Virus record (IMG/VR): IMGVR_UViG_3300017714_000003
Direction: 5' to 3' (one strand)
Length of the DNA: 64,000 nt
Source: an uncultured virus (IMG/VR IMGVR_UViG_3300017714_000003)
Taxonomy: Duplodnaviria; Heunggongvirae; Uroviricota; Caudoviricetes
The translations under genes were made by a program, and so were the position numbers. Below are positions 1,537-27,323 of the stretch, one piece after another. The notes under the pieces were generated by a model, which was not told the origin of the DNA, made no database searches, and worked only from the letters and a program-made list of their open reading frames with translations. Positions within the stretch are counted from its first letter, which is position 1, and the number at the start of each line of letters is the position of its first letter.

Positions 1537-1537
1537 A

Positions 1538-4142: not shown

Positions 4143-4149
4143 GAGAAAC

Positions 4150-4916: not shown

Positions 4917-4918
4917 TC

Positions 4919-5755: not shown

Positions 5756-5809
5756 GGTAATTGCCCCATTACATAATATGTGTTTATATTATGTATTTAT
5801 CTTTTTAAA

Positions 5810-6451: not shown

Positions 6452-6462
6452 TTTGTCCTCCG

Positions 6463-6657: not shown

Positions 6658-6661
6658 AAAA

Positions 6662-7543: not shown

Positions 7544-7555
7544 AATATCCTCTCT

Positions 7556-8091: not shown

Positions 8092-8159
8092 AATAATAAC
8101 TCCAAACTAGGGAACTATAATCCCATTGTTTGTATTTATCATTTTAATTCAAAAATTTT

Positions 8160-8828
8160 TTATGCGAATTTAATGTAATCTTCTTTATTTGGCTTAGGTT
8201 CTCTTTCCCACATATTACCAACATGTGCAAAAGTATTATACCATTGATTTGTATGTAAATTAAGTGTTCTTTTTAGAGAAGAACCATGTCCTAGTCCTAG
8301 AGATACATAAACATCCTTTGCATCATCTACTCCTAGTTTATCTAGTATTACATTTGCATGTTCATATTCCCAATTAAAGCACTGACAATAGCCTGTATCT
8401 ATACCTTTTGCTTTAGCAGATAATATTATGTTAGCTGATGCTATACCAGTTTCCATAGCACTTGGTACAAATCTATTATAAAGTTGTGTCGAATAATCTA
8501 AATCAGGATATCCTGGTTGGTCTCCTGCTCTATTCCAATGTATTCCGTCTCTGCGTTTTAATATAATTAACCAAGGTGCTAAGACTTGAGTATTGTATTC
8601 TACCGGTGTCTTATATGGTTCTCTGATACAAAGTTCATTGAAATGATTTCTAAACTCTGTATCTGACCAATCGAATATTTGAATTTCGTATCTTACTAGA
8701 TTTTGTTTGGAAGCTGAACGTTTATGGACTTCATCCATAATAGATTCAACTGTATCTTTTGAAACTTCTTTTTCTAAATCCCAAGTAGTGGTTTGTACTC
8801 TGGATTCTATTAACTGATTCCAATCCAA
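8160..8828 (-). CDS. nitroreductase-family flavoprotein
   Basis: IESRVQT..W, SASKQN, ETGIASANIILSAKAKGIDTGYC motifs; GTG start after AGGAG. Confidence 0.75.
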   Translation of the reverse strand: MDWNQLIESRVQTTTWDLEKEVSKDTVESIMDEVHKRSASKQNLVRYEIQIFDWSDTEFRNHFNELCIREPYKTPVEYNTQVLAPWLIILKRRDGIHWNRAGDQPGYPDLDYSTQLYNRFVPSAMETGIASANIILSAKAKGIDTGYCQCFNWEYEHANVILDKLGVDDAKDVYVSLGLGHGSSLKRTLNLHTNQWYNTFAHVGNMWEREPKPNKEDYIKFA

Positions 8829-8843
8829 AGTGAACTCCTAGAA

Positions 8844-9236
8844 TTAAAGTATATCTGACATTACGTATTCGATATTCGAACCTTCTACTAACGTAACACC
8901 ATCGATAGTTACGTTTTCAAATAGTTCTTTAAGAACAGAAGTTGTATCTCCGTTTCTTTCAAATACTCTACCATGCTCTACTGCAAACTTAAATAAAAAT
9001 CCTGCGCCTGTTAACGACGGTGCTAGACCATTAAGTGTAACTGCGATTGGATTATTCATTATGATTGGCTGTGCAACCAATGAAATTAGGTTAACAACAT
9101 CATCAAGGTTTTGTTGTGTCTGGTCTGCTACACTACCTGTTGCAGTTATATCTAAACCACTAACATATAATGTATAAAAATTTATATTACCGCCTAAAGT
9201 TTCGCCTGCACTAGCGGCACCATGTATCTTTGCCAT
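8844..9236 (-). CDS. small virion protein, paralog of 9377-9640
   Basis: MAKIHG..SAG..L.GN.N.(Y/F)T N-terminus shared with neighbour; late promoter 9267-9274. Confidence 0.65.
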   Translation of the reverse strand: MAKIHGAASAGETLGGNINFYTLYVSGLDITATGSVADQTQQNLDDVVNLISLVAQPIIMNNPIAVTLNGLAPSLTGAGFLFKFAVEHGRVFERNGDTTSVLKELFENVTIDGVTLVEGSNIEYVMSDIL

Positions 9237-9297
9237 ATTGTTTTCTCCAATATTTAATTATATATGTATTTATCAAAGTGGTTGGTAAGTTAGAGGT

Positions 9298-9327
9298 AAA
9301 AAAAGACCCTCGTTAAAGGGTCTTTTT
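9298..9327. terminator. rho-independent terminator (bidirectional)
   Basis: A7-GACCCT-loop-AGGGTC-T5. Confidence 0.8.
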
Positions 9328-9376
9328 AAATACACGCAAAGTGTGGGTTGGACTGTTAAGTCCAGGGGGGTAAAAA

Positions 9377-9640
9377 TTAGTATGCGAAGTCGGCTACTGA
9401 GAAATCAGCACCTAGAGCCGCGTCTAAACCAGCGGCATCCCATGCGCCGTTGTTTTCTACTGCGATTCTTACATCGTTACCATCGATAGCACCAACTAGT
9501 ACTACTGTAGCACGTGTTCCTGCACCTTCGATTACTGCTTTCATGTCAGACGCCGCCATACCAGTCTTTGTCACTGTGAAGTGATTTAAGTTACCAGTAA
9601 GGAATTGACCTGCTGAATATGTTTCATGTACTTTTGCCAT
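9377..9640 (-). CDS. small virion protein, probably highly expressed; paralog of 8844-9236
   Basis: own late promoter 9701-9708, AGGAG RBS and terminator. Confidence 0.65.
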   Translation of the reverse strand: MAKVHETYSAGQFLTGNLNHFTVTKTGMAASDMKAVIEGAGTRATVVLVGAIDGNDVRIAVENNGAWDAAGLDAALGADFSVADFAY

Positions 9641-9731
9641 TTTAGTTCTCCTAAATAGATATTTCCTCGAGCATTATAAAATTGTATTGCTCTATGCTTT
9701 TATTTATCTTTTTTTGCAAAAAAGTGGGCGT

Positions 9732-10508
9732 TTACTTGCCACGAGACTGGAATTTTCCGCCTAAATTACGTCCAGTTTGATAAGAAGTCTTACCTAACTC
9801 TTTTCCTAGCTTACCTGCACCGTAAATTGCACCAATTGCCACACCTGCTTTAGTGATTGGGCTGTCCCAAATCTTCTTTTTAGTGTCTTTTTTGTCATTA
9901 ACTATGTAGTTTCCACGCTTTTGGAACTTAGCTAACGCTGGCATCAACTCACTACGCATTGCTTTTCTACGTAAATATTGCATCATTCTAGTAGTAACTA
10001 GGGCTCTTTGATTCTGACTTAAATTATCCCAGTCACCTATTAATCTTCTCATTGATTTAAGCATTCCATCTTGTATGTTTAAATCTCTTTGAAATCTTAG
10101 TAGCATTCTTTGTTCAAATCCTGATTCAGACTTGTTTGCCGCTATATGACTTAGATATCTTATAGCTTCTTGTCTTTTTAAATTAATACGACTTAATGCA
10201 ATCTTATCTCTTGGATCATCATCGTTGACTTCTTTGCCAATCAATCTATTAATCATTACATACAAGTCTGTACCACTTGTTCTGAAATAATCAAAGTTAC
10301 GATATGCTACTGTTCTACTTGCATAATCAGACGCCAATGGAGCAAACTCATAGTCTTTATTAAACATATTTAAAATCATCATGTAAGCAAATGATAACTC
10401 AGCCGCATCATCTACATTTGTTTTATTTTGATTTTGTTTTGTTCTAAACAATCTACTTTCTGTAAATGTGTTAACTAACTGTAATTTGCCTTTATATTGT
10501 TCCATCAT
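9732..10508 (-). CDS. hypothetical protein (late region)
   Basis: start reassigned to ATG 10508 (GAGG RBS, ATGA overlap); FTESRLFR near N-terminus. Confidence 0.65.
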   Translation of the reverse strand: MMEQYKGKLQLVNTFTESRLFRTKQNQNKTNVDDAAELSFAYMMILNMFNKDYEFAPLASDYASRTVAYRNFDYFRTSGTDLYVMINRLIGKEVNDDDPRDKIALSRINLKRQEAIRYLSHIAANKSESGFEQRMLLRFQRDLNIQDGMLKSMRRLIGDWDNLSQNQRALVTTRMMQYLRRKAMRSELMPALAKFQKRGNYIVNDKKDTKKKIWDSPITKAGVAIGAIYGAGKLGKELGKTSYQTGRNLGGKFQSRGK

Positions 10509-10702
10509 TTTGTCCTCGATTGCAATACTTGATTGCATCTATCACTTGCATAGGATGTAAACCATCTTGGTGCAAACGCATGTATCATACACGCATATGC
10601 GGCCTTTTCTAGTTGCCACGAAACCCACATTGCATGTTTAAAATGTTGCCAACGTGTTTCGCCTACTTCCTCTAGGTGCAATTTGCATTTCTTACTTAAC
10701 AT
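10505..10702 (-). CDS. DUF6356-like small protein
   Basis: HLEEVGET..QHFKHA...HAFAP..FT..AS pattern. Confidence 0.6.
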   Translation of the reverse strand: MLSKKCKLHLEEVGETRWQHFKHAMWVSWQLEKAAYACMIHAFAPRWFTSYASDRCNQVLQSRTK

Positions 10703-10706
10703 CTAA

Positions 10707-12056
10707 CTAATCCCTTGGTGCAAAGTTTGCCGCACTAAATTCTAATCTGTCAACAATCTTCATTGCTTTACCTACATGGTCAACAATAACAAATCCTTCT
10801 GGGTCTGTTACTTTAAATGAACCATCTGGTTGTTCAATGAAACTGTCTATTGCTTTTATGTTCTTCATCTTTTGTTGAAACATCATTTTAACTGCTTCAA
10901 CTTTTAGATAAGCACGATACATATCTGCAATCTGTTTCTCATATGTATTTATGATATTTGCTATATCATCTTTTGCTTGTAATCTAGCCTGACCTGCTTT
11001 TCCTTCAGGTCCTGTAGCTAAATTGCTAATTTCTTTATCTAATTTTGCTTGTAAACCTTCTAAAAATCCTTTAACAAAGACATCTGCATCTTGTTCTAAT
11101 GCTTGTCCTGTACGTATTGGTTTATTTGCATGTGCCTTAATAGCATCAACTAATTCTATCTGACCAATCTTTTGATTGATTGCTTTAAAAGTCTTTGCAT
11201 CAACTTTCAGTGTTGCTAATTCTTTAATTGCTAGTCTTATTCTTGCAACATTTTCTTTCTTTAAGTTTACTTGTCCTGATACATCTTTAATACGTGCATC
11301 TGTAAACCAAACATTTGGAGTAGATTTAAGATTACTTGCATCATAACCAAATGATGCTTTCATATCTGCTAAACTATCTCCTGAATAACTTGTATGAAAC
11401 ACAATACCAATCTCAGCCGCCATCATTTCTTTCGCTATCTGACTGTCTGTTGGTACAACATACGTAATTGTATTTGGTTTGAATGCTATATGGGCTTTGC
11501 CCTCTATGTTTGTTTGTTTTAAATCACCCTTAGTAAACAATAAGTCACCTTGTAAGACACCATCAATACCTAAGTCTTTCAAATGTTCTAATGAAGCATT
11601 AAGTTTATTACGTAGACCTTCTTTGCTCACTGGTTCGCCGTTCTTTACAGTATCACCGTGATTTTGTTCAATATCTTGTGAAGATTTATTAAGTTTTGGT
11701 GTTTTAGCAAACACGCCTTTTGTGCCTACAAAGAATTGTCCGTCTGCTGGATCTGTTCCACAAAATACTGCTGGTGATCCGTCCCACTTAGTAGTGATTG
11801 CATCACCGCCACCTTGTCCATCAAGTGTATTTAATAATTTAGTGAACGTATCTACAACACGTTTTATACCTTCTGATCCATTTATGAATACTAATTCTTC
11901 TGCATGGTCTAGGTGTGTATTCTTATCTTCTTCTTTTAATTCAGCATCTAATAGACCTTTTAATTTTTTATGAAAACCTACTTGTTTAAAACGAGGTTTA
12001 CGTAGTCCTCTAAATCTACGCTCTCTGCCTTTGCCTAATATATCTCTTACTTTCAT
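10707..12056 (-). CDS. DUF6267-like protein with ligase-type nucleotidyltransferase motifs
   Basis: NTHLDHAEE, TTKWDGSPA (KxDG), QGDLLF, EGFV, KIVDR. Confidence 0.65.
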   Translation of the reverse strand: MKVRDILGKGRERRFRGLRKPRFKQVGFHKKLKGLLDAELKEEDKNTHLDHAEELVFINGSEGIKRVVDTFTKLLNTLDGQGGGDAITTKWDGSPAVFCGTDPADGQFFVGTKGVFAKTPKLNKSSQDIEQNHGDTVKNGEPVSKEGLRNKLNASLEHLKDLGIDGVLQGDLLFTKGDLKQTNIEGKAHIAFKPNTITYVVPTDSQIAKEMMAAEIGIVFHTSYSGDSLADMKASFGYDASNLKSTPNVWFTDARIKDVSGQVNLKKENVARIRLAIKELATLKVDAKTFKAINQKIGQIELVDAIKAHANKPIRTGQALEQDADVFVKGFLEGLQAKLDKEISNLATGPEGKAGQARLQAKDDIANIINTYEKQIADMYRAYLKVEAVKMMFQQKMKNIKAIDSFIEQPDGSFKVTDPEGFVIVDHVGKAMKIVDRLEFSAANFAPRD

Positions 12057-12274
12057 TGTTTATCCCCAAAAGGTCTCTCGCCAGTTAAATGAGGCTTAGC
12101 AAACCATAACTTAAACCATTCATCTGTGCCTGGCTGTATATTATGCTTCTTTTGGAGTTTAGATTTCTCTGTACCAGTATAAGATATGTTCTCTTGTTGA
12201 GTTTCTTCTGGTAGATATGGTTTATATATACCTGATAGTACTTTTAATCTATTTAACTGTTGCTCTAAAGTCAT
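12053..12274 (-). CDS. hypothetical protein
   Basis: LNRLKVLSG motif; IQPGTDEWFKLWF. Confidence 0.65.
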   Translation of the reverse strand: MTLEQQLNRLKVLSGIYKPYLPEETQQENISYTGTEKSKLQKKHNIQPGTDEWFKLWFAKPHLTGERPFGDKQ

Positions 12275-12522
12275 TATGTTTTAGCCTTGACACTTTTTAT
12301 ACCACGTTTAAACTTTCTCGGATCTTGAGACCTAATACTATTAACTAATCTCTTAGTTAAGTCATTTGCAGTCTCATCATCAAACTCACGATTGATAAAT
12401 TCTATAAGATTTATCGCTCCCGTTATGATATGTTCGCCTTTTTGCTCTACTAAACGTTTATTATCTCTATCATATGAGATAGAATTTAGTTCTTCAAATA
12501 GACTTTTACGAGGTTTATCCAT
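12274..12522 (-). CDS. hypothetical protein
   Basis: GGAG RBS and late promoter 12544-12551. Confidence 0.7.
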   Translation of the reverse strand: MDKPRKSLFEELNSISYDRDNKRLVEQKGEHIITGAINLIEFINREFDDETANDLTKRLVNSIRSQDPRKFKRGIKSVKAKT

Positions 12523-12549
12523 GATATTTCTCCGTTCTAACTGTATTTA

Positions 12550-13953
12550 TCAGTTTTCATCAAAAGGAGTGCGTGTCTTGGTCTTTAACATTGCTCTCAG
12601 GTTCATTGCAACATCAGTCTTTTCTTCTTCGTTAGTTTCTGGTGCTTTTACTACGGTTTTTTGACGTAATGTATCGACTACATTCATCGTATTTGATGTA
12701 TTTTGAGCATCAGCTAACCCTTCTGTATCATCTGAAATCTTAAGACTATCTCTGTCAAATACTAGATTAATTTTGCTACCTACACCACTACTTGAACGTG
12801 TTTTCAATAACTGTAATTGATATTGACCACGTTCTCTCATTGCTTGACTTGTAAAGATACCAATAACATTATCCGCAGTTTGAATTTTAGAGATACCACC
12901 TGCGATATGTGAATGGTCAAATTCGATTTCTTCAACTGCACTTCTATTTAACTGTGATGCAGTTACCAAAACAGTTTCAGTTTCCATTGCAAAGTTACGA
13001 ATTTCTTCTGTTACATATTTGTCTTTAATAAACAAATCACTTGCTGACACTTTCTTTGTTGCTGGCATTAACAAATCTAAGTAATCTACACACATACAAT
13101 CTACACGTTTGCCAGTTTGTATCTGTAGTTCTTTAATGTAAGAACGCAAGTCATTAATTGAAGAACCAGAAGGAAGATACTTAACACGTAACATGCCAGA
13201 CTTCTTACCTTTAGTTTTAACTTGTAATTCTACATCATCTAATTCTTTAAAAATTCTTTTTGTACTTCTATCAGTAAGCATTGCATCCATACGCATACTT
13301 GATAGTTCTTCTGAAAGTTCAAGTGTAAAGTATACACAATTCATTCCTGCTTCTGCCCAATTCAAACTCATATTTTGCATGAACAAAGATTTACCTGCAC
13401 CTGATCCACCACAGAAAATAGAAATCTCACCACGATTGATACCACCATAAAGTTTATCATCTAATGATTTCCAACCAGTTGTGATTTGTCCGTTATTGTC
13501 TTTTAGTTTTTCAAGTCTTGCTCTAGGATCTGCAAAGTAATCTGTACCTAATGAACGTGCAAGTCCAGTTTGTACTGCTTCTTTAATTCTAAGTTCTACT
13601 TCTCCATACTTACCTGTTTCAAGCAAGTCTGCACTATCAATGATTGCTTTTTCGATTGCTTTGTGTCTACAAAAAGTTTCAAACTCATCGATAAACCAAT
13701 CTACGTGTTGATTGATGTTATCTAATTTTTCTATCTCTTGTCCTGTTTGTGCTTTGATAATTTCAGTAGTTGGAATCGTAGCATATTCTTCACTATGATT
13801 AACTAATACTTCGACTACTTTTCTGATATTTCTATCAAAATACTTAGGTTCGACTATCGCTCTGACTCTTGAATAAAGTTCAGGATCAGTTATCATAAAC
13901 TGAACAAACAATTTCTGCAAATCTAAACTATAATCTTTTACTTCTTCTGCCAT
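12550..13953 (-). CDS. replicative DnaB-like helicase (T4 gp41-like)
   Basis: GGSGAGKS Walker A, TLELSEE, VDYLDL, TASQLNR, KTRSS. Confidence 0.93.
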   Translation of the reverse strand: MAEEVKDYSLDLQKLFVQFMITDPELYSRVRAIVEPKYFDRNIRKVVEVLVNHSEEYATIPTTEIIKAQTGQEIEKLDNINQHVDWFIDEFETFCRHKAIEKAIIDSADLLETGKYGEVELRIKEAVQTGLARSLGTDYFADPRARLEKLKDNNGQITTGWKSLDDKLYGGINRGEISIFCGGSGAGKSLFMQNMSLNWAEAGMNCVYFTLELSEELSSMRMDAMLTDRSTKRIFKELDDVELQVKTKGKKSGMLRVKYLPSGSSINDLRSYIKELQIQTGKRVDCMCVDYLDLLMPATKKVSASDLFIKDKYVTEEIRNFAMETETVLVTASQLNRSAVEEIEFDHSHIAGGISKIQTADNVIGIFTSQAMRERGQYQLQLLKTRSSSGVGSKINLVFDRDSLKISDDTEGLADAQNTSNTMNVVDTLRQKTVVKAPETNEEEKTDVAMNLRAMLKTKTRTPFDEN

Positions 13954-14509: not shown

Positions 14510-14930
14510 TTTTGTTTTCTCTTATTTCTTTTTTCTCTAAACTTAATTTTTCTTTTGCACTCATTAAGTATGCCGCGCCTGCCAATACTGCAATAGCACC
14601 TGCTTCTGCAACAAGCATCCAAGGATCTGCTTCTTTACTATGTAGAACAATTAATCTACAAAGTGCCGTCATAGCAATGATAATAGGTAGAGTAACAGGT
14701 ATTCTATTACTAATATAGAATGCTCCTACCATTCCTACAATCTCTGCATAGATAAAAAGTAAAAACAAGTCGCCTAGTTCTACTTGCATGTTCTTTAACA
14801 TGTGAAAAATATCTGAACCAGCCGCAAACATAGTTAGTAATCCAATTACTGCTAATAATAATTTTTCACTATAAAGTGTTGTCCAATGCAACCTACTATT
14901 AATCTTAGTAATATCTAATTTAATTTTCAT
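14502..14930 (-). CDS. psiE: phosphate-starvation-inducible PsiE family membrane protein
   Basis: [35 protein letters not shown]. Confidence 0.85.
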
Positions 14931-15871
14931 GAATGTATCTTAACCTTAAATAAACTACTTACACTTTCTTCATTATTAACTCGTCTGATTGCTTCTCCTA
15001 ATAATCCACAAACACTTACTGAACGTGTCTTTTTCCACGAAAGTTTATGATTGATACTATCAGTAATAACAAGTTCATCTAATTTACTTTTTTCAACTCT
15101 TTCACATGCTTTGTTACTTAGCACTCCATGAGTGATATATGCTCTAACACTTAATGCACCTGCATTTAAAATTGCCTCAGCCGCATTACAAAGAGTACCA
15201 CCACTATCAACAATATCATCTACAAGAATTGCATGTTTGCCTTTTACTTCACCAATCAAATTCATAACTTCTGCCTTGCCTGCTTCTGGTCTTCGTTTGT
15301 CAACGATTGCATAATTGGCATGATACATATCAGCAAACTTTCTTGCTCTTACTGTACCACCAGCATCTGGTGAAACAAATACAATTGGTTCTTCTGTTAC
15401 TTTAATAGTTCTTTGAATATCTTTTGCAAAGACTAACCTACTCGTTAAATCATCAACAGGAATATCAAAGAATCCTTGAATTTGACCAGCATGTAAGTCC
15501 ATTGTTAAAATTCTATCAGCACCTGCTTTTGTAAGCAGATTCGCAACTAACTTTGCAGTTATAGGAGTACGTGATGCACTCTTTCTATCTTGTCTTGCAT
15601 AACCAAAATAAGGAATTACCGCAGTGATACGACTAGCACTACTACGTTTTGCCGCATCAATCATAATCAATAATTCCATTAAGTTATCATTTACAGGAGT
15701 GCTTGTGCTTTGAATAATGAAAACGTCTTCACCTCTGATATTTTCATGAAACTCTACTGAGCATTCACCATCTGCAAATGTTTTTATTTCTGCTGGAACA
15801 ATATCTGTAAAACAATGTTCAGCTACCTTCTCAGCCAGTTCAACATTACTGTTGCCTGCGATAATCTTCAT
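14927..15871 (-). CDS. prs: ribose-phosphate pyrophosphokinase
   Basis: [45 protein letters not shown]. Confidence 0.96.
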
Positions 15872-15904
15872 AGAACCCACCTTTGTTACAAAATTATTAC
15901 TGTT

Positions 15905-18481: not shown

Positions 18482-18871
18482 ATGGACAAAGAAAAACAAC
18501 AATGGATGCAAGAGAATTATCCGTTCTTCTCATATGTTAGATACGGAAATAAAAAAGAATTTACTGAGCATCTAGGTATAATTATAAATTCAGACCAAGT
18601 AATCACTTCGATGTACAACTTTGAGGCAATACCAACACCTGAATTAAGAAAGAAGTTCGTAGAATTAGGAGAACAATGGTGGTGGGAGTCTAATAGGCTT
18701 ATGCCGATTAATTTATTTTTAGGCTCACAGATTGGCAAGTATAAGAATTGGATATTGAATATGAATTCAAAAGATGTTGAGGTAACATGGGGACCAGAGA
18801 CTAGTCTATCAAATATTATACAGAAACGTATTAAGAGGCGTTCTGTTCAACTTGTTCGCAAAATAGATTAA
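18482..18871 (+). CDS. hypothetical protein
   Basis: YPFFSYV..GIIIN..WWWESNR..PIN; TAAATA 5 nt before ATG. Confidence 0.7.
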   Translation: MDKEKQQWMQENYPFFSYVRYGNKKEFTEHLGIIINSDQVITSMYNFEAIPTPELRKKFVELGEQWWWESNRLMPINLFLGSQIGKYKNWILNMNSKDVEVTWGPETSLSNIIQKRIKRRSVQLVRKID

Positions 18872-19421
18872 GCTGAACCACAATACTTACTGCATATGCA
18901 ATAGCATGTGCTTTTTTAAAATAGTAAGTACCATCTTCTGGCTTTTGCCAAACTAATTCAGAAATCTTAGACTTACTTTCATTAAGCAAGTGCCTTTTTG
19001 CAGGTCTAATGACCGCTAGAACTTCTGCCAGTTCCATTACACTTTGAGGTTTCATTACTTTCAAAACATCTATATGATTATGTACGTGTGCAAGATTTTT
19101 TACAATATCTTCGTGTTGTAATAAATCCCATAAAGGTTCTTTATCAATCAATGCATCAAGGTGTTTTTCATCACGGACACCTTCATATAAACTGTTATTA
19201 AGAAAATCTAGTTTAAAGTATCCACGTTCTTCTGCTTCTTTATATTCGATAGCAGATAAACCAGATATTGGATCATATGGAATAGGCTGTAGATATACAC
19301 CACTATTATGTTTTGTCCAGTTATCGCCTTTTTTGATACTGGCTGTTATGTGTCGAAAATGTGTAAGGACTGTGTCACGGTCAATTACATCAATATCAAT
19401 ATCTGTTTCTACTTTATTCAT
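18831..19421 (-). CDS. minimal DNA polymerase III alpha (family C) catalytic core
   Basis: TDIDID, KHNSG, GYFKLDFL, IRP, FKKAHAIAYA in DnaE order within 196 aa. Confidence 0.82.
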   Translation of the reverse strand: MNKVETDIDIDVIDRDTVLTHFRHITASIKKGDNWTKHNSGVYLQPIPYDPISGLSAIEYKEAEERGYFKLDFLNNSLYEGVRDEKHLDALIDKEPLWDLLQHEDIVKNLAHVHNHIDVLKVMKPQSVMELAEVLAVIRPAKRHLLNESKSKISELVWQKPEDGTYYFKKAHAIAYAVSIVVQLNLFCEQVEQNAS

Positions 19422-19456
19422 AATTTTAGTATACACTATTTCCAGACCATTGTAAA
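19422..19456 (-). promoter_or_regulatory. sigma70-type promoter, leaderless geometry
   Basis: TTTACA-17-TATACT-6 nt-ATG. Confidence 0.7.
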
Positions 19457-19829: not shown

Positions 19830-20114
19830 TTATTTGTCATGTATATGACAGTTGGTACCACCATATTTAATACAGACTGTTTTGAAATCTTTGTCTTGTG
19901 TCTTTTCTAAATGATGTGCTAATTCGTGTATAATAATACCTACGTGAATTATTTGATTATCATCATAATGAATATGACCTTCTCCACTAGTATAGTAATA
20001 GTACGCAGGTGTCCATTCATTTTCCATTTCCACAATTTTAGTGTTTGGACAATCATCTATTCCCATAATAACGCACAAAGCTAACTGAACGGCTTTGATA
20101 GTTTCAAATAACAT
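19830..20114 (-). CDS. small HExxH zinc-metallopeptidase-like protein
   Basis: IIIHELAHH; GAGGGAG RBS. Confidence 0.55.
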   Translation of the reverse strand: MLFETIKAVQLALCVIMGIDDCPNTKIVEMENEWTPAYYYYTSGEGHIHYDDNQIIHVGIIIHELAHHLEKTQDKDFKTVCIKYGGTNCHIHDK

Positions 20115-20137
20115 ATTTTCTCCCTCATAAAAAATAC

Positions 20138-20770
20138 TTACTTATAATCGTGATGGTCAGCATGGTTCCACCCCCACCATGCAAGGGGTTTTAGCAACTG
20201 TACATTTCTATGCACTCCGCCAATATGAGACAATGTATTTGTCAAACTGGCACTGTGAAAACTATACAGAACTCCTGGAGATAACGCAAAGAATAGCAAT
20301 CTTAAATCTATAAGAGCAATCACTAATACGATTGCAATATGCAAATAATACCAATGTTTGTGAACCCATTTTTGAAATTTACTTCTGGCAAAATCAGCAA
20401 GAAGTCTAGGATTGATATTTTGTGGTTCCCAATCTAAAAAGTATACACGTTTCCATCCTATATGATGTGGCGAGTGTGGATCTTTTTCTGTGTCTGTAAA
20501 TCTATGATGTTGTCTGTGTGAAGCACTGAATGATATTGGTGATCCTAATCCAGACGTTAATGACAGTAAAGTATAAAAATAACTTTTAAGATTGTCCTCG
20601 TATTTGCCATGAGCAAAATAATAATGAATAATATTATGTCCTACTACCCAAGCCCAAAACATTCCAAACAAAAATACTACGATAGCCCATGGCCATTGAA
20701 ACCCATACATCGCAATGCCTACTGCTAACGATACATGATGTAATAATATAAATATTTGGCTTTTGTTCAT
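20138..20770 (-). CDS. membrane fatty acid desaturase (acyl-CoA/delta-9-like)
   Basis: His boxes HYYFAH, HRQHHRFTDTEKDPHSP, NHADHH; TM helices. Confidence 0.85.
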   Translation of the reverse strand: MNKSQIFILLHHVSLAVGIAMYGFQWPWAIVVFLFGMFWAWVVGHNIIHYYFAHGKYEDNLKSYFYTLLSLTSGLGSPISFSASHRQHHRFTDTEKDPHSPHHIGWKRVYFLDWEPQNINPRLLADFARSKFQKWVHKHWYYLHIAIVLVIALIDLRLLFFALSPGVLYSFHSASLTNTLSHIGGVHRNVQLLKPLAWWGWNHADHHDYK

Positions 20771-21330
20771 ATCAGTTTTTCTCTTACTTCTTCAAATGGC
20801 ATATTTAAAATTCTTAATTTAAAAAGCATTCTATCTGTAGATGTTTGTTCTGGTACCATATGTTTCTTACTAACATTTATTAATGCATCTTTATAATAAA
20901 ATGTACCATCTTCTTCAAATACTATCGGAGTTTCTTCTCCTCTGAGTATAAAGTTTATAGCACAAGATGTACCAACATCAACATGCATCTTAACATTAGT
21001 GCCTACTTTTTGCGTAAAAAAGTTAGCCTCAATATCATTAGTGTCTAATCTCTCTTTAAATATAGAAAGTATTCTAGTAGTCTCTGGCATCTTAGTTAAC
21101 ATATCGGCATCAGCATTCATACTTGATTGCCAAGTATCTTGTCGCATCCACCAATCTTTATCTTCCTTGTTAAGATAATCAGAAAACTTTCTACCTTTTG
21201 CATCATAGCTACCTAACTGAACACGTTTTAATGTAACACGATTGATTGGTACAAACTGACAATGATTGCTTTCTTCTATTAGCTTATCTTTGTCAATATC
21301 AAAATCTATATTATGTATAGAATTATTCAC
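20767..21330 (-). CDS. 2OG-Fe(II) oxygenase/cupin-like protein
   Basis: MHVD..CAINF..LINVSKKHMV..DR pattern (HxD...H...R). Confidence 0.65.
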   Translation of the reverse strand: MNNSIHNIDFDIDKDKLIEESNHCQFVPINRVTLKRVQLGSYDAKGRKFSDYLNKEDKDWWMRQDTWQSSMNADADMLTKMPETTRILSIFKERLDTNDIEANFFTQKVGTNVKMHVDVGTSCAINFILRGEETPIVFEEDGTFYYKDALINVSKKHMVPEQTSTDRMLFKLRILNMPFEEVREKLI

Positions 21331-21931
21331 TAAAGTACTCCATCATTCGCTTACATGCATTATTATACGATACATCTTTTATTCTAAATTTAAGTAACAT
21401 TCTTTTCATATCTTGTTGTTTAGGTACACCGTGAAAGACGTTACAGATGTTAAGTAATGCGTTATCGTAGTTGTATTTATGTATAGATCCATCGTCTTCT
21501 CTGAACATAATTGGTGTATCTCCACCATCTATAATTAAGTTTATTGCACATTGAAACCCCATATCAATATGCATTGGAAAGTCTGAGTTTTGCTCTTGTA
21601 ATACAAAGAACGGTGTTATGTCTTTACTATCTAATATCTTAGCAAAATCATTAGTTAATCTTTTCATTTCTGGACAATCATCTTGATATTGATATTCATT
21701 GAATGCTCTTATTTTCAAAGTATCCATATTATCCCATTGCTCTTTATCTTTTAAATCATGATATGTAGGGAAAATATCTTCACCAGTTTCTCTGCCTGCA
21801 TTAACTTTTTCTAATAAATCGGTATTAACATTATGCAAAGAAGTATCATTACTTTCTTGCATCAACTTGTGTTCTTTTCTGAGTTGGTCCTTGTCAATTC
21901 GATAATCGAATTTGTATAAATGCTTTAACAT
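21323..21931 (-). CDS. 2OG-Fe(II) oxygenase/cupin-like protein, paralog of 20767-21330
   Basis: MHID..CAINL..LLNICNVFHGV..KR; start reassigned to ATG 21931. Confidence 0.65.
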   Translation of the reverse strand: MLKHLYKFDYRIDKDQLRKEHKLMQESNDTSLHNVNTDLLEKVNAGRETGEDIFPTYHDLKDKEQWDNMDTLKIRAFNEYQYQDDCPEMKRLTNDFAKILDSKDITPFFVLQEQNSDFPMHIDMGFQCAINLIIDGGDTPIMFREDDGSIHKYNYDNALLNICNVFHGVPKQQDMKRMLLKFRIKDVSYNNACKRMMEYFSE

Positions 21932-21949
21932 TGGCGCATTTCCCGGGAC

Positions 21950-21979
21950 GATAAATAGATGTACATAAACATATTTATT
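21950..21979. promoter_or_regulatory. overlapping divergent late promoters
   Basis: GATAAATA (+) 21950-21957 and AATAAATA (-) 21972-21979. Confidence 0.6.
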
Positions 21980-21994
21980 AAGGTACAAAACTAT

Positions 21995-22933
21995 ATGCTT
22001 CATAAACTCTTTAATTATGAGATTACAGAACCAGAAGAAAATACGTTTGTAGATATATGTGCAGATATCACGCATAAATGCAACATGACTTGTAAGAACT
22101 GTTATATACCTAGCAGAGAACCACCTGATATGGACTTAGATAGATTTAAGGATTTCATGGATAGGCTTGGTGGTCGAGCATTTGTACGTATTATCGGTGC
22201 AGAACCTACAATGTCTCCTAACTGTGCAAATTTTATTCGTGCAGTATATGAGCATGGACGTACCAATGGTAGAAAGCATAGTTGTACTTTAGTAACAAAT
22301 GGATTAAGATTATCACGTCCAAAATATTTAAATACTTTAATTGAAGCAGGATTACGTAGTGTAACTTTAAGTTTGAATGGAGTAGATAACGATGATTGGT
22401 ATGAACAAATCGATGAACTACGTTGTGCAACTAAAAAACTAAAAGCACTTCGTAATATCGTAGATAGAAAAATGAATTTGAATACTGGTACTATTATTAT
22501 TCCAGAGATTAATTATGAAGCACCAGCAAGATTAAAAGAACTTATAGAGAAAGAAAAGATAAACAACGTAATGATGAGAATTAAAAACGTTGGACAATTA
22601 GGTAGATATCAGAAAGACAAAGACGGTAACATTAAATTAGAAGGGCTAGTAAAACTATGTGCAGACCAATTTAATGTCTCTGAGGACTATATTTGGAGCT
22701 TTCACGGTGTACCTTACTACAATAAGTTTAGCGAAAAGAACACTATTTTATTCCCACTGAAGGAAGGAAATAAACTTCTAAATAGAGGAAGATGGGTAAA
22801 AATTACTAATTGGGATACTGACAATGAAGGTGGTATTCCAGACCCAGGTAGCAAAAGAAGAGGACGTATTACACAAGACTTCAAACTTGCACCATTTTAC
22901 GAACACACAAAAGAGAATGAAGGCGGCTATTAA
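21995..22933 (+). CDS. radical SAM enzyme (MoaA/PqqE-like core)
   Basis: CNMTCKNC, IIGAEPT, VTNG, LSLNG; start at 21995 after AAGGT. Confidence 0.88.
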   Translation: MLHKLFNYEITEPEENTFVDICADITHKCNMTCKNCYIPSREPPDMDLDRFKDFMDRLGGRAFVRIIGAEPTMSPNCANFIRAVYEHGRTNGRKHSCTLVTNGLRLSRPKYLNTLIEAGLRSVTLSLNGVDNDDWYEQIDELRCATKKLKALRNIVDRKMNLNTGTIIIPEINYEAPARLKELIEKEKINNVMMRIKNVGQLGRYQKDKDGNIKLEGLVKLCADQFNVSEDYIWSFHGVPYYNKFSEKNTILFPLKEGNKLLNRGRWVKITNWDTDNEGGIPDPGSKRRGRITQDFKLAPFYEHTKENEGGY

Positions 22934-22934
22934 A

Positions 22935-23171
22935 ATGAGCAGAACACTAAAGGCACTAAAAGAAATTACACTTGACAGGGCAGAGGTTGAACTAACTGAT
23001 GAGTTTATCGAATCAGGTCAACCATTTAAAGACATTGGCGTTGATTCGTTAGATAGTATTGAAATTCTAGTTACACTAGAAGACGAGTTAGATATCGAAT
23101 TAGACAACCAAAGACTAGACGAAATTAAAAACGTTAAAGATTTAGTGGAGTATCTAGCGGAGTATGATTAA
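22935..23171 (+). CDS. acyl carrier protein
   Basis: 78 aa, acidic, DIGVDSLDSIEILVTLEDELDI..IKNVKDLVEYL with the phosphopantetheine Ser. Confidence 0.9.
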   Translation: MSRTLKALKEITLDRAEVELTDEFIESGQPFKDIGVDSLDSIEILVTLEDELDIELDNQRLDEIKNVKDLVEYLAEYD

Positions 23172-24193
23172 TGAAAATTAAACTACTCGATTTAGATATA
23201 GACCTAAACGATGAACTTGATTTATACTTTTTACACGAAAAACTAGTATATGAAAAATATATAGAGTTACGTAATATAAAAAGTAGCGATATCTACACTA
23301 AGATTTATAAAAAAGATGTAGTAGATACTTACACCCAAAAAGCAAGAACAGGTAGTTGGGATATTCATTCCGACATGGTATATCAATATGATACTGATAA
23401 GTTTGAAAATGTCAGTGAAGATTATACTATGTGTTGGAAGAAAACTGACAAAGATTTTGATAAACTAATAATTCACTTTACAAGTTATGCAGGACATGAA
23501 GGTAGATTGACAAGTCCACTAACAAACGTAAGTGAGAAAATTGTAAACTTAGATACTGACTTGTTGATTGTAAATGAAGACCCATTACGATATCCTGAGT
23601 CTTTATATCCTAGTGCAATGGTATTAGGTGTAAGTAAAAAGAACGATACACAAGAAAAGATGTGTAATCAGATAAGAGAATATGTTAAGAAAAAATACAA
23701 GCACGTAATAATATACGCAGACTCTAAACATGCCGGTAGTGCATTAAGTGTCGCATATCATCTAAGTGATATAGTAACAAACGTATTAACTACAGCCGGT
23801 CAAGCAACATATTCTTGGGAACATTCTCCTTGGATTAAATCTTATTTCAAATGGTTTAATAGACCATCGCACCTTGAAGAACAAAAGCTAGATATGATTA
23901 ATGTTGCAATTATGCATATGGTAAAATGTTGGGGATTTAAAAAGTTAAATATTGATAATAAGATATTAGACCCATACAGATACTTAGATGCATATCCTAA
24001 TATCAAAGTAGACTATCTATATGGTAAGTATGATACTGAGTATGTTGGATTTGCTGATTATGTTAAGCAGTTTAAGTTTGATAATTTAAATGTACAAGAA
24101 ATAGACTATAAGATTTCAGATTTTCAAACACACAATATAAGACCTTACGTAGATAGAAAATTACTTTCTAACTACATTAACGATTTAACATAG
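23171..24193 (+). CDS. alpha/beta-hydrolase-like protein (possible acyltransferase/thioesterase)
   Basis: KLIIHFTSYAG, VIIYADSKHAGSAL (atypical elbow), YLYGKYD, C-terminal THN; TAATG-coupled to ACP. Confidence 0.5.
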   Translation: MKIKLLDLDIDLNDELDLYFLHEKLVYEKYIELRNIKSSDIYTKIYKKDVVDTYTQKARTGSWDIHSDMVYQYDTDKFENVSEDYTMCWKKTDKDFDKLIIHFTSYAGHEGRLTSPLTNVSEKIVNLDTDLLIVNEDPLRYPESLYPSAMVLGVSKKNDTQEKMCNQIREYVKKKYKHVIIYADSKHAGSALSVAYHLSDIVTNVLTTAGQATYSWEHSPWIKSYFKWFNRPSHLEEQKLDMINVAIMHMVKCWGFKKLNIDNKILDPYRYLDAYPNIKVDYLYGKYDTEYVGFADYVKQFKFDNLNVQEIDYKISDFQTHNIRPYVDRKLLSNYINDLT

Positions 24194-24966
24194 TCTTTCA
24201 TTTCTTTAATTATTTCTGGATTACTATATTCTGTCTTTTTTAAAAGACGTTGAGTATGCCAATTTAGTAACTCCATCTTTTCCATGTTATACATATCTTG
24301 GTAATAAAGAAAACGTTCTCTATCAACATCGCCAAACTGTACTATATCTTTTGGTGAAATATCATCTACATCATGTAGCATGAAACGTTTTTCATCGGGT
24401 ATTATTTTTAGAGCAAGTGCTTGTTTGTCTGCATGTAGTTTAAATAATTCTAAAAAATTTTCCATATTATTTTCTGTATGCATCTTACTTGTATAATACT
24501 CATTACATGCAACTTTGAATATAGATTCAAACTCTAAAGGCACTGCCAAAAACAGTGTGTTTGTTTTAGTAAAATCATTTACAAGTGTTCTATAATGTTC
24601 TTTGCTATCTGGTTGTCTGTTCTGTACAAGTCTTGGGTGTGTATTGAATAAGACTTTAGTTGGTTTCATTTCGTCAAAGTGAGGGCGAAAATCTTCTATC
24701 ATATGTGAAAGCATAAACTCATTATACTTTTCTACAAACTCATATCCACCACCTCTTAAACTTAGCGAATATCTATTTCTTTTTACTAAAGCATAATCAA
24801 CAGACCAATATCTCCATTGGTCTTTTAACTCATAATCATCATAAAACCCTTTTACTGAATATGATATAAGACCTGATATATAGTCTCCATATGTTCCAGC
24901 AAAGTATTCTAGCAAGTAAGTTTTTTGTGGTAATACGTCTATTTTTCCCACGGAAATGTTACCCAA
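24172..24966 (-). CDS. hypothetical protein (possible sulfotransferase/P-loop-like N-terminus)
   Basis: YFAGTYGDYI motif; converges on the hydrolase gene. Confidence 0.45.
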   Translation of the reverse strand: MGNISVGKIDVLPQKTYLLEYFAGTYGDYISGLISYSVKGFYDDYELKDQWRYWSVDYALVKRNRYSLSLRGGGYEFVEKYNEFMLSHMIEDFRPHFDEMKPTKVLFNTHPRLVQNRQPDSKEHYRTLVNDFTKTNTLFLAVPLEFESIFKVACNEYYTSKMHTENNMENFLELFKLHADKQALALKIIPDEKRFMLHDVDDISPKDIVQFGDVDRERFLYYQDMYNMEKMELLNWHTQRLLKKTEYSNPEIIKEMKDYVKSLM

Positions 24967-25442
24967 TTTTCGTCTTCTGAATATAATTCTTCATAGTAGT
25001 AATCAGTATCAACAATAGAATTTGGATCCATAATAAGTGAAGCAAACTTAACATTATTGTGCCAAACACTTTCCCAAGTTAATGTATCATTGGGTAAGCA
25101 ACCTTCTTTCCAATCATTCATAAGCCATGCAAGAGCATCACCGCCACGATTAATATCATCAATAACTAATATATTTTTTTGTTTATCTTTGTAACCAAAG
25201 GCATCTTCTGCCATCCAACAATTACTTTCTGTATTTTCTTCAAGTCCTTCTGTACCAAGTTGTATTGAAAGTGTATGCATTGGAATATTAGTCATATGAG
25301 ATAACATAACTGCTGGTATTAATCCACCTCTAGTTATACCAACAATATAATCCGGTCTCCATTCACTTTGATACATTTGCATTGCTATATGTTGAATAGC
25401 TTTATCTACTTTAATCCAATCATAATCAATGGTTTTCATCAT
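24939..25442 (-). CDS. type I phosphoribosyltransferase (xanthine-guanine PRT-like)
   Basis: IVGITRGGLIPAVMLSH, ILVIDDINRGG, WVTFPWE. Confidence 0.88.
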   Translation of the reverse strand: MMKTIDYDWIKVDKAIQHIAMQMYQSEWRPDYIVGITRGGLIPAVMLSHMTNIPMHTLSIQLGTEGLEENTESNCWMAEDAFGYKDKQKNILVIDDINRGGDALAWLMNDWKEGCLPNDTLTWESVWHNNVKFASLIMDPNSIVDTDYYYEELYSEDENWVTFPWEK

Positions 25443-26316: not shown

Positions 26317-26988
26317 TTAAATACCTGCTTTCTCTAGAATCTCTTTTACAAAAATAACATCGTCTTTTCTGACCTCAAACTTTCTTGTCCAGAAAGTAGG
26401 CTCAAGATATTCATTAATCAAATTTAACTCATGGTCATTGAAACTATTTAAAAGTTCAGTACCAGACATAGAATTAAAAATAATCCAAGGGCTAATGCGT
26501 CCGGATTTGATCCAGTGTATAGCACGTGGCTTACTAATCTCCCTAAAGAATACATTAAACGGTCTATCATTTTCCATTCCCCATTGTTGCATCAATAAGA
26601 TGCCTCTTTCAACTGCACGTTCGGCTGTCTCTTTTTTATTTAGTTCTCTGATATAAGTTTCATAAACAGTATCAGAACACCATTTATCCAGCTTTACGCC
26701 GCTTGTTATAACAAAATCTATAAACTTTTCTGGGTCTATAGCATTTACTTCTATAATATATTTACCAAACTTTGTAAATGCAGTATAATAATTGCTTTTA
26801 GAAAAGTCTTCGTATGTTCTTTGTTTTGTGCCTCTTTGAGATATTTCATAAAAACGATTATATGCAAGAAATCCTAATCTTACATATTTTGAATCTTTGT
26901 TTGTAAATCTTCTTTTCTGTTCGCACATATGGGCAATAAGAGTCTTTTCTCTCTTAAAACTTTTTCCACAAAATTTACATTCAAACAT
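26317..26988 (-). CDS. hypothetical protein with N-terminal zinc finger
   Basis: MFECKFCGKSFKREKTLIAHMC; start placed after the tRNA. Confidence 0.75.
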   Translation of the reverse strand: MFECKFCGKSFKREKTLIAHMCEQKRRFTNKDSKYVRLGFLAYNRFYEISQRGTKQRTYEDFSKSNYYTAFTKFGKYIIEVNAIDPEKFIDFVITSGVKLDKWCSDTVYETYIRELNKKETAERAVERGILLMQQWGMENDRPFNVFFREISKPRAIHWIKSGRISPWIIFNSMSGTELLNSFNDHELNLINEYLEPTFWTRKFEVRKDDVIFVKEILEKAGI

Positions 26989-27001
26989 AGACTTCTCTTT
27001 C

Positions 27002-27078
27002 TGGCGGACCCGAGAGGATTCGAACCTCTGACCTCCTGTTTCGTAGACAGGCGTTCTATCCAGCTGAACTACGGGTCC
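27002..27078 (-). tRNA. tRNA-Arg (anticodon ACG), CCA encoded
   Basis: GGACCCG/CGGGTCC acceptor stem, D-arm AGTTCAGCTGGATAGAAC, anticodon arm CCTGT-CTACGAA-ACAGG, GGTTCGAATCC, 3' GCCA. Confidence 0.95.
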
Positions 27079-27092
27079 GTTTATCTCAACCA

Positions 27093-27323
27093 CTAAACAT
27101 CTTTAACGCCTACGTATTTTCCATTTTCTACACCTACATAGGTAGATGAAGAAAACATATTAACACCTGTCTTAACTTCATTTAAAAGTTCTTCTACTCT
27201 ATCCTCTAATACGCCGATAGTAGTATGTATGTGACCAGTGTCATGTGGTTGAATTCTTAATTTTTGTACCTCGATTTCACTTACGAGTATTTTAATTGTT
27301 GTTACTAGTTCGTCATTTGTCAT
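27093..27323 (-). CDS. hypothetical protein
   Basis: QPHDTGHIHTTIGVLEDRV; ATGA-coupled. Confidence 0.65.
   Translation of the reverse strand: MTNDELVTTIKILVSEIEVQKLRIQPHDTGHIHTTIGVLEDRVEELLNEVKTGVNMFSSSTYVGVENGKYVGVKDV

Follow-up and report, generated by a model that had tools for sequence, protein, structure and literature searches.

The desaturase genes of cyanophages are stand-alone genes of cyanomyoviruses that encode full-length acyl-lipid desaturases, and to our knowledge the lipid auxiliary genes of phages have so far been single desaturases. Such genes provide a precedent for members of the FA_desaturase family in marine phages (PMC5776448, in the part of that paper available to us). 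In alkyne and polyyne pathways, membrane desaturases work on acyl chains bound to an acyl carrier protein (ACP), and a ligase, a dedicated ACP and a thioesterase are used (PMC9828172; 10.1101/291195, each in its accessible sections). The proposed ladderane clusters of anammox bacteria, which combine a dedicated ACP, a desaturase-type enzyme and still uncharacterized radical S-adenosylmethionine (SAM) enzymes, have been suggested to remodel a fatty chain bound to the ACP, and radical SAM enzymes such as the tetraether lipid synthase GDGT-MAS/Tes, which couples lipid tails, and the bacterial membrane-spanning lipid synthases Mss functionalize unactivated carbons of lipid tails (PMC9433317; PMC13459092, as far as the available text of these sources goes). 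Here we analyze a 64,000-nucleotide stretch of an uncultured virus of the Caudoviricetes (IMG/VR record IMGVR_UViG_3300017714_000003), hereafter the window, in which genes for a radical SAM enzyme (rSAM), an ACP and a hydrolase-like protein (p340) lie divergently to genes for two cupin oxygenase-like proteins (oxyA and oxyB) and a desaturase-family protein (desat210). We find that these island genes are a recurrent, functionally linked acyl-type module and not chance neighbors, and that the module would be carrier-protein acyl tailoring, a known logic, built around an uncharacterized radical SAM family.

Each of the described systems differs from the phage locus. The Jam (JamA/B/C), cay and pgn cassettes share with the phage genome ligase, ACP, desaturase and hydrolase parts, a comparison made by parts and not by sequence orthology, but they have neither a radical SAM enzyme nor a cupin oxygenase, and in the phage about 160 kb separate the island from the ligase and the second desaturase. 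The ladderane system, itself unproven and likened here by description rather than homology, uses a B12-dependent radical SAM enzyme and a phytoene-dehydrogenase-like desaturase. In contrast to the cyanophage genes, desat210 encodes only 210 residues and sits inside a multi-enzyme operon with rSAM, cupins and an ACP, and Tes and Mss are not known to have such ACP, cupin and desaturase partners. Nothing like the phage rSAM family appears in the accessible portion of a 2026 review of radical SAM enzymes that modify lipids, which covers Tes, Mss, Gms, Grs, Gmm, Cds, HpnH/J/P/R and Jaw5 as well as the ladderane candidates (PMC13459092). A literature search confined to the papers themselves yielded no account of the present module, nor of any phage operon in which a carrier protein and the phage's own phosphopantetheinyl transferase (PPTase) are joined with a radical SAM enzyme; ACP modules of freshwater jumbophages come up in one 2026 paper, but only in passing.

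The rightward operon runs from rSAM (312 aa; 21995-22933, + strand), the anchor of the module, through ACP (78 aa; 22935-23171, +), which begins after a 1-nt gap behind the rSAM stop, to p340 (23171-24193, +), whose ATG overlaps the ACP stop. In the opposite direction lie oxyA (202 aa; 21323-21931, −), oxyB (187 aa; 20767-21330, −), which overlaps oxyA by 8 nt, and desat210 (20138-20770, −), which overlaps oxyB by 4 nt, and the two arms are separated by a 63-bp divergent control region (21932-21994). The start of oxyA is most likely 21931 (MLKHLY...) and not 22075, because the longer open reading frame (ORF) would enter the rSAM gene and the homologues begin MLKHLY or MLEHLY. The genes that an earlier reading of the window, made from its letters alone (the sequence-only reading), had claimed were all present at their coordinates, and their family calls held when tested by ORF inspection, profile searches and predicted folds; the rightward operon also runs, as that reading had it, against the strand bias of the genome, with 81 of 86 ORFs (greedy ORF pick) on the − strand.

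The linkage of these genes, likewise claimed from the sequence, is borne out by synteny, as the same families co-occur across divergent phages and, in part, in bacteria. Anchoring on rSAM gave 34 IMG/VR loci, among which the same phage is at times represented by more than one sample, and the partner genes in them were identified with hidden Markov models (HMMs) built from the window proteins. A cupin accompanies rSAM in 27 of the 34, of the oxyA/oxyB type (A1) in 11, of the Asp_Arg_Hydrox type (A2) in 19 and of both types in 3; the seven cupin-free loci are L009-11, L027, and L030, L032 and L033, which are cut at the contig end. The ACP gene stands directly behind rSAM, 1 nt away or overlapping it, in 14 of the 34 loci, from several lineages, while a p340-family gene is present in 13, a desaturase in 12 and p264, the convergent neighbor of p340, in 11. 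Several arrangements outside the close relatives of the window recur on the same theme: L027 is an operon of an AcpS-type PPTase, rSAM, ACP and a 358-aa protein that is a remote p340 homologue (hhalign 87%, E 3.7e-6) with a Cys nucleophile; L012/13 place a cupin divergently to rSAM-ACP-p340-p340' (two p340 paralogues) next to a carbamoyltransferase and a DUF6071 gene, and L017-19 have the same locus without p340; L029 has rSAM, ACP, a cupin and a 343-aa protein more weakly related to p340 (hhalign 40%, E 3e-4); and L031 reads cupin-rSAM-TauD-ACP-desaturase-class II aldolase-desaturase, with overlapping ACP and desaturase frames. In L014, rSAM is followed by a gene of the IMPDH/GMP-reductase family that overlaps the rSAM stop, a 235-aa AMP-binding protein and an A1 cupin. 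Upstream of rSAM in the same locus (L014 3224-7243), we also observed a class IV aminotransferase, a SAM methyltransferase and a B12-binding radical SAM gene (503 aa).

Two genes flanking the module have a different standing. The product of p264 (24172-24966, −), which lies in the operon of PRT167, has no family match, and a PDB sequence search with it gave nothing usable; p264 accompanies p340 throughout the lineage, island-less relatives included, and the two are a backbone pair of the lineage, with the island an insertion beside them. At the far end of the leftward arm, the HExxH microprotein gene HExxH94 (19830-20114, −; HELAH motif) would be co-transcribed by position, and its product reaches PHROG 87 metalloprotease at E 0.0066 only. 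It occurs in 2 of the 34 rSAM loci, both copies of one phage, and is absent from the close relatives L003-5. The leftward operon proposed by the sequence-only reading thus keeps its two paralogous HxD...H oxygenase-like genes and its three-His-box desaturase, but HExxH94 is probably not part of the module. We looked for rSAM in L041, L042 and L045, and for p340 in L017, L014, L029, L031 and L021, and found none, in records that are 2-32% complete and hence uninformative on this point.

Relatives of rSAM also occur in bacteria, where a scan of one genome per species recovered 73 loci at 31-44% identity. In the closer subfamily, Bdellovibrionales carry co-directional cupin-desaturase-rSAM operons, often with further cupins after them, and Roseibium, Labrenzia and other Alphaproteobacteria carry GNAT-cupin-rSAM or cupin-rSAM; among the 54 bacterial loci with a called rSAM ORF, a cupin cluster is present in 23, a desaturase in 13 and a GNAT gene in 11. 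In a distant subfamily (Caulobacterales, Sphingomonadales, Acidobacteriota and others), rSAM instead accompanies a Haem_oxygenase_2-type iron enzyme, at 16 loci, often along with genes for an MBOAT protein, a GDSL-like protein and an MFS transporter. From this bacterial pattern it follows that the conserved core is rSAM with oxygen-dependent iron enzymes, and that the ACP, the PPTase and the hydrolase are phage additions. As separate observations, the distant-subfamily run (L090 6107-13320 and 15 similar loci) comprises a GMC oxidoreductase, rSAM, the Haem_oxygenase_2-type enzyme, an MBOAT protein, a GDSL-like protein and an MFS transporter, and looks like a system that makes an acyl group and exports or O-links it; and the GNAT-cupin-rSAM locus of Labrenzia and Roseibium adjoins an Imm11 immunity-family gene and a ParB_N protein (L075 8061-8753; L066 4257-6140), which hints at a mobile or conflict-related context.

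The rSAM protein belongs to the radical SAM superfamily (Pfam PF04055, 60.1 bits against a cut-off of 29.5) and carries a single CxxxCxxC motif (CNMTCKNC). Across 16 sequences, C29, C33 and C36 are invariant and the sole other invariant cysteine is C144; with only C144 invariant beyond the motif, rSAM has no SPASM, twitch or other auxiliary cluster. The family comprises 401 proteins at E ≤ 0.001 in a near-length search of marine metagenomes, of about 300 aa and labeled at most "MoaA," and spans marine phages, Bdellovibrionales and Alphaproteobacteria. No NCBIfam model was matched at its cut-off by phage or bacterial members: the best scores were to TrsS (66.7 bits; cut-off 490), MoaA (54.2) and Tes (36.9; cut-off 450), and the bacterial relatives reached 63-76 bits against the Tes model. 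The best solved relative of rSAM is GDGT-MAS, which produces the tetraether lipids of archaea, found in a PDB profile search at E 4.6e-19 (7tol), ahead of MoaA at E 4.5e-16. When the AF2 model of rSAM (pLDDT 81) was compared with 7tol, 295 residues aligned (model 2-312, chain 70-481; VIA Z 21.4, rmsd 3.5), from the radical SAM core into the region of the C-terminal domain, and the other structural matches were lower (MoaA, Z 16.5; viperin and SuiB, at most 14.1), so that in the predicted structure the fold likeness to GDGT-MAS extends past the generic radical SAM core.

GDGT-MAS holds lipid tails in hydrophobic pockets and contains four metallocofactors, namely three [Fe4S4] clusters plus a rubredoxin iron, one of the clusters capturing the substrate radical (PMC9433317, in its accessible portion). 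The phage enzyme, in contrast, is 312 aa long where GDGT-MAS has about 500, lacks the rubredoxin domain, and lacks the cysteine ligands of the two auxiliary [Fe4S4] clusters that, by the same partial source, store the radical in GDGT-MAS (PMC9433317). Assignment of rSAM as a Tes was rejected, given the missing auxiliary-cluster and rubredoxin ligands and a score of 36.9 bits against 450. Because the auxiliary clusters are lacking, the chemistry of rSAM would be simpler than tail-to-tail coupling, and the modeled fold suggests that rSAM may act on a lipid tail by such simpler chemistry.

The carrier protein, which the sequence-only reading had called a canonical DSL-motif ACP, is confirmed as such: it matches PP-binding (PF00550) with 43.2 bits against a cut-off of 20.8 and PHROG 5934, "acyl carrier protein," at E 1.3e-11, and its Ser38 lies in a DSLD motif (GVDSLDS) whose D37 and S38 are invariant in nine phage ACPs. 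Against the housekeeping AcpP equivalog TIGR00517 it scores 45.4 bits, below the cut-off of 70.45, and is by sequence a divergent, dedicated-type carrier. The p340 protein has no match in Pfam, PHROG or NCBIfam; its family, a small one, has 31 clusters in a set of 1.84 billion representatives, and its AF2 model, from an alignment of 21 members, is confident (pLDDT 93.2). Foldseek matched the model to many esterases at E ~1e-6, and it aligned to the 50 alpha/beta-hydrolase entries listed with VIA Z scores of 14.4-16.3, led by esterase D/S-formylglutathione hydrolase (3i6y; Z 16.3, rmsd 3.4, 225 residues aligned) and followed by the Asp2-containing Gap complex (6oyc; 16.1), antigen 85A (15.7) and the capsule O-acetyltransferase CsaC (15.2), all of these top matches falling within 1 Z unit. 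The candidate nucleophile, Ser185, lies in a GDS(K/R)H motif between strand 178-184 and helix 185-197 and is replaced by Cys in the three most distant family members; D288, D312 and H321 are at least 90% conserved, giving a putative triad of Ser185, Asp288 or Asp312, and His321. Structure prediction thus upholds the earlier hydrolase-like call, with a confident alpha/beta-hydrolase fold and a conserved Ser/Cys-Asp-His set, and p340 would be an esterase or acyltransferase, the fold alone not separating hydrolase from transferase. With CsaC, Asp2/Gap, antigen 85 and esterase D, p340 has in common the fold (Z 15-16 across some 220 residues) and the order of nucleophile, acid and His, but its identity to them is at most 12% (highest for CsaC, 12%), it has no Pfam match and it bears an extra helical N-terminus of 70 residues. 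Atlas matches of p340 (Asp2, Peptidase_S9) and of p264 (a weak sulfotransferase match) were treated as leads only, and a prediction of the p340-ACP complex (score 0.07, mark 0.32) gave no verdict and was used neither way.

In the leftward arm, desat210, a short protein of the membrane di-iron desaturase family, shows the three His boxes (H45xxxH, H85xxHH, H203xxHH) together with hydrophobic segments near residues 6-48 and 140-170. It matches the DesA family at E 2.7e-8; its 43 homologues carry precomputed PF00487 assignments, several are stearoyl-CoA desaturases according to JGI, and those in L031 and in Bdellovibrionales clear PF00487 at 58-71 bits. The paralogues oxyA and oxyB, 32% identical, are putative Fe(II)/2-oxoglutarate oxygenases with an HxD...H facial triad, H122, D124, H168 and R178 being invariant in nine sequences. 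Their A1 family is small (37 proteins), and its profile found chance-level matches only in the PDB. Alignment of A1 with A2 across the metal motif (hhalign 46% probability, E 2e-4) and a match of the A2 HMM to the A1 member of L014 (E 2.8e-4) suggest that oxyA and oxyB are remotely related to the Asp/Asn-hydroxylase-type cupins. Among these, LpxO and OlsC hydroxylate acyl chains of lipids. The HxD...H triad is equally spaced in oxyA/oxyB and in LpxO, OlsC and Cpz10, and the rSAM-adjacent A2 cupins pass or approach Asp_Arg_Hydrox (28.6-43.5 bits), with weak matches to LpxO and Cpz10; oxyA and oxyB differ from LpxO in being shorter, with no membrane anchor seen, and in falling far under the Asp_Arg_Hydrox cut-off.

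The sequence-only reading had further noted that the window holds no synthase, acyl ligase or PPTase, and had concluded that substrate must come from the host or from elsewhere in the genome. Neither a PPTase nor an AMP-ligase was found in the source record of the window, a 160,851-bp marine virus record that is a 44% fragment by estimate, yet the host need not supply these functions. A 342,607-bp IMG/VR contig (G001) with direct terminal repeats, rated 100% complete, matches the window at 99.95% identity over 16,936 bp (8 mismatches, 0 gaps), and we took it as the complete genome of the window's phage, a marine jumbo myovirus of about 342 kb in which the acyl island is accessory. Its terminase finds its nearest cultured relative in the Pseudomonas jumbo phage PA5oct (56% identity), and the 6.1-kb DNA, p340 and rSAM have no match in the GenBank phage collection. 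This genome encodes an AcpS (TIGR00516, 85.7 bits against a cut-off of 59.8) and three ACPs, including that of the island. A co-directional run at 82-88.5 kb (L139 = G001:76000-95000, ORFs 6104-12551) consists, in order, of a fatty-acyl-AMP/CoA-ligase-like enzyme of the long-chain type (454 aa), a flavin halogenase (558 aa; Trp_halogenase, 296 bits), two unannotated ORFs, a desaturase (258 aa) paralogous to desat210 (E 1e-32) and a FabF-like ketosynthase (KS; 382 aa), a run that we take to resemble the Jam-type ligase/desaturase/halogenase sets. Of the parts encoded together in Jam-type systems, ACP, desaturase and hydrolase are in the island, while the ligase, a second desaturase and the KS are elsewhere in G001; L014 has an AMP-binding gene within its rSAM operon.

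The two further ACPs have other surroundings. The second lies divergently to an A2-type cupin (33% identical to that of L017) at a locus (L057 = G001:105000-124000, 481-10218) that also encodes a radical SAM/SPASM protein (431 aa), a 925-aa protein with a weak glycosyltransferase family 2 (GT2) signal, for which a PDB sequence search gave nothing usable, a carbamoyltransferase and a DUF6071 protein; the relatives L012 and L017 carry the island-type rSAM at the equivalent locus. The third ACP gene (L058 = G001:25000-44000, 8029-9364; L140 9199-9579) directly follows nitroreductase-family and IscA-type Fe-S assembly genes, with a NifU-like scaffold gene some 13 kb off. It seems that the phage itself supplies parts for Fe-S cluster assembly, and these would be of use to its several radical SAM enzymes.

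Both arms had been proposed to start at late-type ATAAATA motifs, a claim that holds better for one arm than for the other. ATAAATA is present for both arms in the 63-bp divergent spacer: GATAAATA lies at 21950-21957 (+), 37 nt before the rSAM ATG, and AATAAATAT at 21972-21978 on the − strand, about 40 nt before the oxyA ATG. The 8-mer GATAAATA is enriched in the window, with 18 sites against 6.75 ± 2.8 expected and none of 100 shuffles reaching 18, and all 18 are sense-oriented and 12-61 nt upstream of ORF starts (for example 55099, 57928, 60792, 43536, 5794 and 63498). They precede the tail tube, sheath and head-tail adaptor genes and several virion-protein genes, and none of the annotated helicase, primase, ribonucleotide reductase (RNR), UvsX, SSB or terminase genes, in a window whose content is mixed between replication (primase, helicases, RNR, UvsX, SSB) and structure (sheath, tube, adaptors, terminase). 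From its placement, GATAAATA is probably the late promoter of the phage. The leftward match is weak: it is to the 7-mer ATAAATA only and does not fit the 8-mer. The 7-mer itself is not enriched (28 found against 37.5 expected). The T4 late promoter TATAAATA was tried as the motif and rejected (2 found against 10 expected).

The GATAAATA and AATAAATAT elements are conserved in seven relatives, and ATAAATA stands 12-54 nt before the first module gene in 9 of 12 upstream regions of other phages (L012, L014, L017, L021, L022, L027, L029, L009 and L041). A paper on PA5oct describes sigma70-like TATAATA/TTGAC motifs and not ATAAATA, and so lends no support on timing. Contigs from RNA libraries (four runs, three studies) match pieces of desat210, oxyB, oxyA, the rSAM/ACP junction, p340 and p264 with 0-1 mismatches; they are weak evidence, carrying no strand or level information and open to DNA carry-over, and they leave bins uncovered (for example 23619-24420 in all four runs), from which no conclusion was drawn. 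Late expression of the rightward arm is plausible on these grounds, that of the leftward arm less so.

We propose, at about an even chance, that the island carries out carrier-protein-templated tailoring of a fatty acyl chain followed by transfer or release by p340. The tailoring is placed on an ACP-bound chain because the parts (ACP, AcpS, ligase, KS, desaturases and a terminal hydrolase) match the alkyne/polyyne logic. In this pathway, the rSAM-ACP-p340 operon would probably be transcribed with the late, structural genes, and the phage AcpS would convert the ACP to its holo form at Ser38. The acyl chain would then come onto the carrier through the ligase and the FabF-like synthase of the phage, or else from the fatty-acid synthesis of the host. 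Next, rSAM would abstract hydrogen from an unactivated chain carbon, one option being a radical addition or rearrangement at a site that the desaturase has prepared, and desat210 together with the Fe(II)/2-oxoglutarate-type oxyA and oxyB would introduce unsaturation and hydroxyl groups. Finally, p340 (Ser185-Asp-His321) would take the finished acyl group from the ACP and either pass it to an acceptor hydroxyl, as modeled on the glycan chemistry of its structural neighbors CsaC, Asp2 and Ag85, or set it free as an acid. As pointers toward transfer onto the hydroxyl of a glycan we count the tie of p340 with CsaC, Asp2 and Ag85, the carbamoyltransferase, DUF6071 and GT2-like neighbors in relatives, and the MBOAT and GDSL genes that accompany rSAM in the distant bacterial subfamily.

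A number of our results weigh against this pathway. No substrate, product or acceptor was identified, the ligase-KS cluster of G001 is at a distance of about 160 kb and its connection to the island is one that we infer, and late timing is drawn from motif association only. Some Pfam scores are also low: desat210 scores 27.8 bits against Pfam FA_desaturase (PF00487), just below the cut-off of 29.7, and neither oxyA nor oxyB has a significant Pfam match (oxyB reaches Asp_Arg_Hydrox at E 0.027, 14.7 bits against 22.6; oxyA, none). Cysteines for auxiliary clusters, on which the chemistry of GDGT-MAS depends, are missing from rSAM, and MoaA, viperin and BlsE, which have nucleotide or sugar substrates, are significant matches of it as well. 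The adjacent ACP is lost in the close relatives L006-L011, where rSAM and p340 are kept (L009-L011 also lack both cupins), and in the island-less L040-45 and L048, g110 is followed by p340 with its own ATAAATA 33 nt upstream, so that p340 is not obligatorily tied to rSAM. None of the 73 bacterial loci has an ACP, p340 or an A1-type cupin within 8 kb of rSAM, and the rSAM-cupin-desaturase trio can therefore work without a dedicated carrier.

This last point favors the main rival, membrane-lipid remodeling without a carrier, in which rSAM, the desaturase and the cupins would act on acyl chains esterified in phospholipid, lipid A or aminolipid of the host, on the model of LpxO/OlsC-type hydroxylases, acyl-lipid desaturases and Tes/Mss, with ACP-p340 a separate function sharing the operon. 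The ACP-free cupin-desaturase-rSAM operons of bacteria fit it, as do the loss of the ACP from L006-11 with retention of rSAM and p340, a weak LpxO match of one Bdellovibrionales cupin (E 1e-4), the use of whole lipids as substrates by GDGT-MAS and Mss (PMC9433317; PMC13459092, in their accessible sections) and the standing of cyanophage desaturases as an established membrane auxiliary metabolic gene (PMC5776448, likewise in part). We nonetheless consider it unlikely, since the ACP adjoins or overlaps rSAM in 14 of the 34 viral loci across several lineages, L027 unites PPTase, rSAM, ACP and hydrolase in a single operon, the ACP and desaturase frames overlap in L031, and the phage carries its own AcpS, ligase and KS. 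If the chain is instead tailored on the carrier, p340 could be a plain thioesterase that frees the modified fatty acid as a diffusible signal or toxin, much as a thioesterase ends the polyyne cassettes (PMC9828172, in its available part); plain thioesterases and esterases are indeed among the top structural matches of p340, with esterase D/S-formylglutathione hydrolase at Z 16.3. The acyltransferases CsaC, Asp2/Gap and Ag85 follow within 1 Z unit, however, with CsaC highest in identity (12%), the module in relatives adjoins glycan-tailoring genes (carbamoyltransferase, DUF6071, the weak GT2 signal), and the distant bacterial rSAM subfamily sits with the O-acyltransfer genes MBOAT and GDSL-like, which together leave such a release product rather improbable.

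A further reading would place rSAM among the MoaA- and viperin-like enzymes and the cupins among Asp/Asn hydroxylases, acting together on a nucleotide, a DNA base or a virion peptide. The MoaA match (E 4.5e-16, Z 16.5), viperin at Z 14 and the PADLOC pVip models (E 3.5e-10) speak for it, but all of these cover the generic radical SAM core only and are weaker than the match to GDGT-MAS. The surroundings are also suggestive, with the island lying among replication genes beside a phosphoribosyltransferase, the IMPDH/GMP-reductase-family gene overlapping the rSAM stop in L014, and a weak match of A2 cupins (E 0.04) to Cpz10, a nucleoside-antibiotic hydroxylase (PMC9814697, as described in the accessible text). 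An integral-membrane desaturase, an ACP, an AcpS and an alpha/beta-hydrolase are nevertheless ill-suited to the chemistry of nucleotides or of peptides synthesized ribosomally and modified post-translationally (RiPPs), rSAM lacks the SPASM/twitch cysteine set and no precursor peptide was seen, and we hold this reading to be highly improbable. Just as little probability attaches, in our estimate, to there being no joint pathway at all. That the island is a hypervariable slot collecting unrelated auxiliary genes would agree with a g110-p340 slot that holds a varying set of genes in L003-L011 and nothing in L040-45 and L048, and with HExxH94 being confined to 2 of 34 loci; it is disfavored by the reunion of the same families in other contexts, at the carbamoyltransferase locus (L012, L017), on other backbones (L014, L021, L022, L027, L029, L031) and in bacteria, with overlapping reading frames.

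Returning to carrier-templated tailoring, a broader and more speculative form of the proposal, which we regard as unlikely in its entirety, is that the phage encodes, over several loci, a near-complete thiotemplated fatty-acid pathway of its own (AcpS, three ACPs, a ligase, a FabF-like synthase, two desaturases, a halogenase, a minimal Tes-like rSAM, cupins and a hydrolase transferase), whose late product would be a lipid of a new kind, an unsaturated and hydroxylated acyl group modified by rSAM, perhaps halogenated too, and installed on a glycan of the host envelope or of the virion, and that the same core would serve lipid modification in Bdellovibrionota and Alphaproteobacteria. The rSAM reaction, once worked out, would add new radical lipid chemistry and would show what a giant phage gains from lipid synthesis late in infection, and the reaction can be approached through cultured bacteria in which the core operon occurs (Roseibium, Labrenzia alba).

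Other features of the window stand apart from the module. A second radical SAM gene (58901-60025, −; 374 aa, PHROG 14086) lies between a deoxynucleoside monophosphate kinase gene and a head-tail adaptor gene. The phosphoribosyltransferase (24939-25442, −) and a ribose-phosphate pyrophosphokinase (14927-15880, −) form, with an IMPDH/GMP-reductase-family gene in G001 (L056 12364-13536), a nucleotide-salvage set. A 201-aa ORF (18831-19436, −) matches a 197-aa PHROG family, "DNA polymerase," at E 4.7e-72 and may be a separate piece of a split polymerase. A tRNA-Arg(ACG) at 27002-27078 (−), where RNA-library contigs pile up, falls within the 5' end of ORF 26317-27093 as listed, and the true start of that protein is therefore further downstream.

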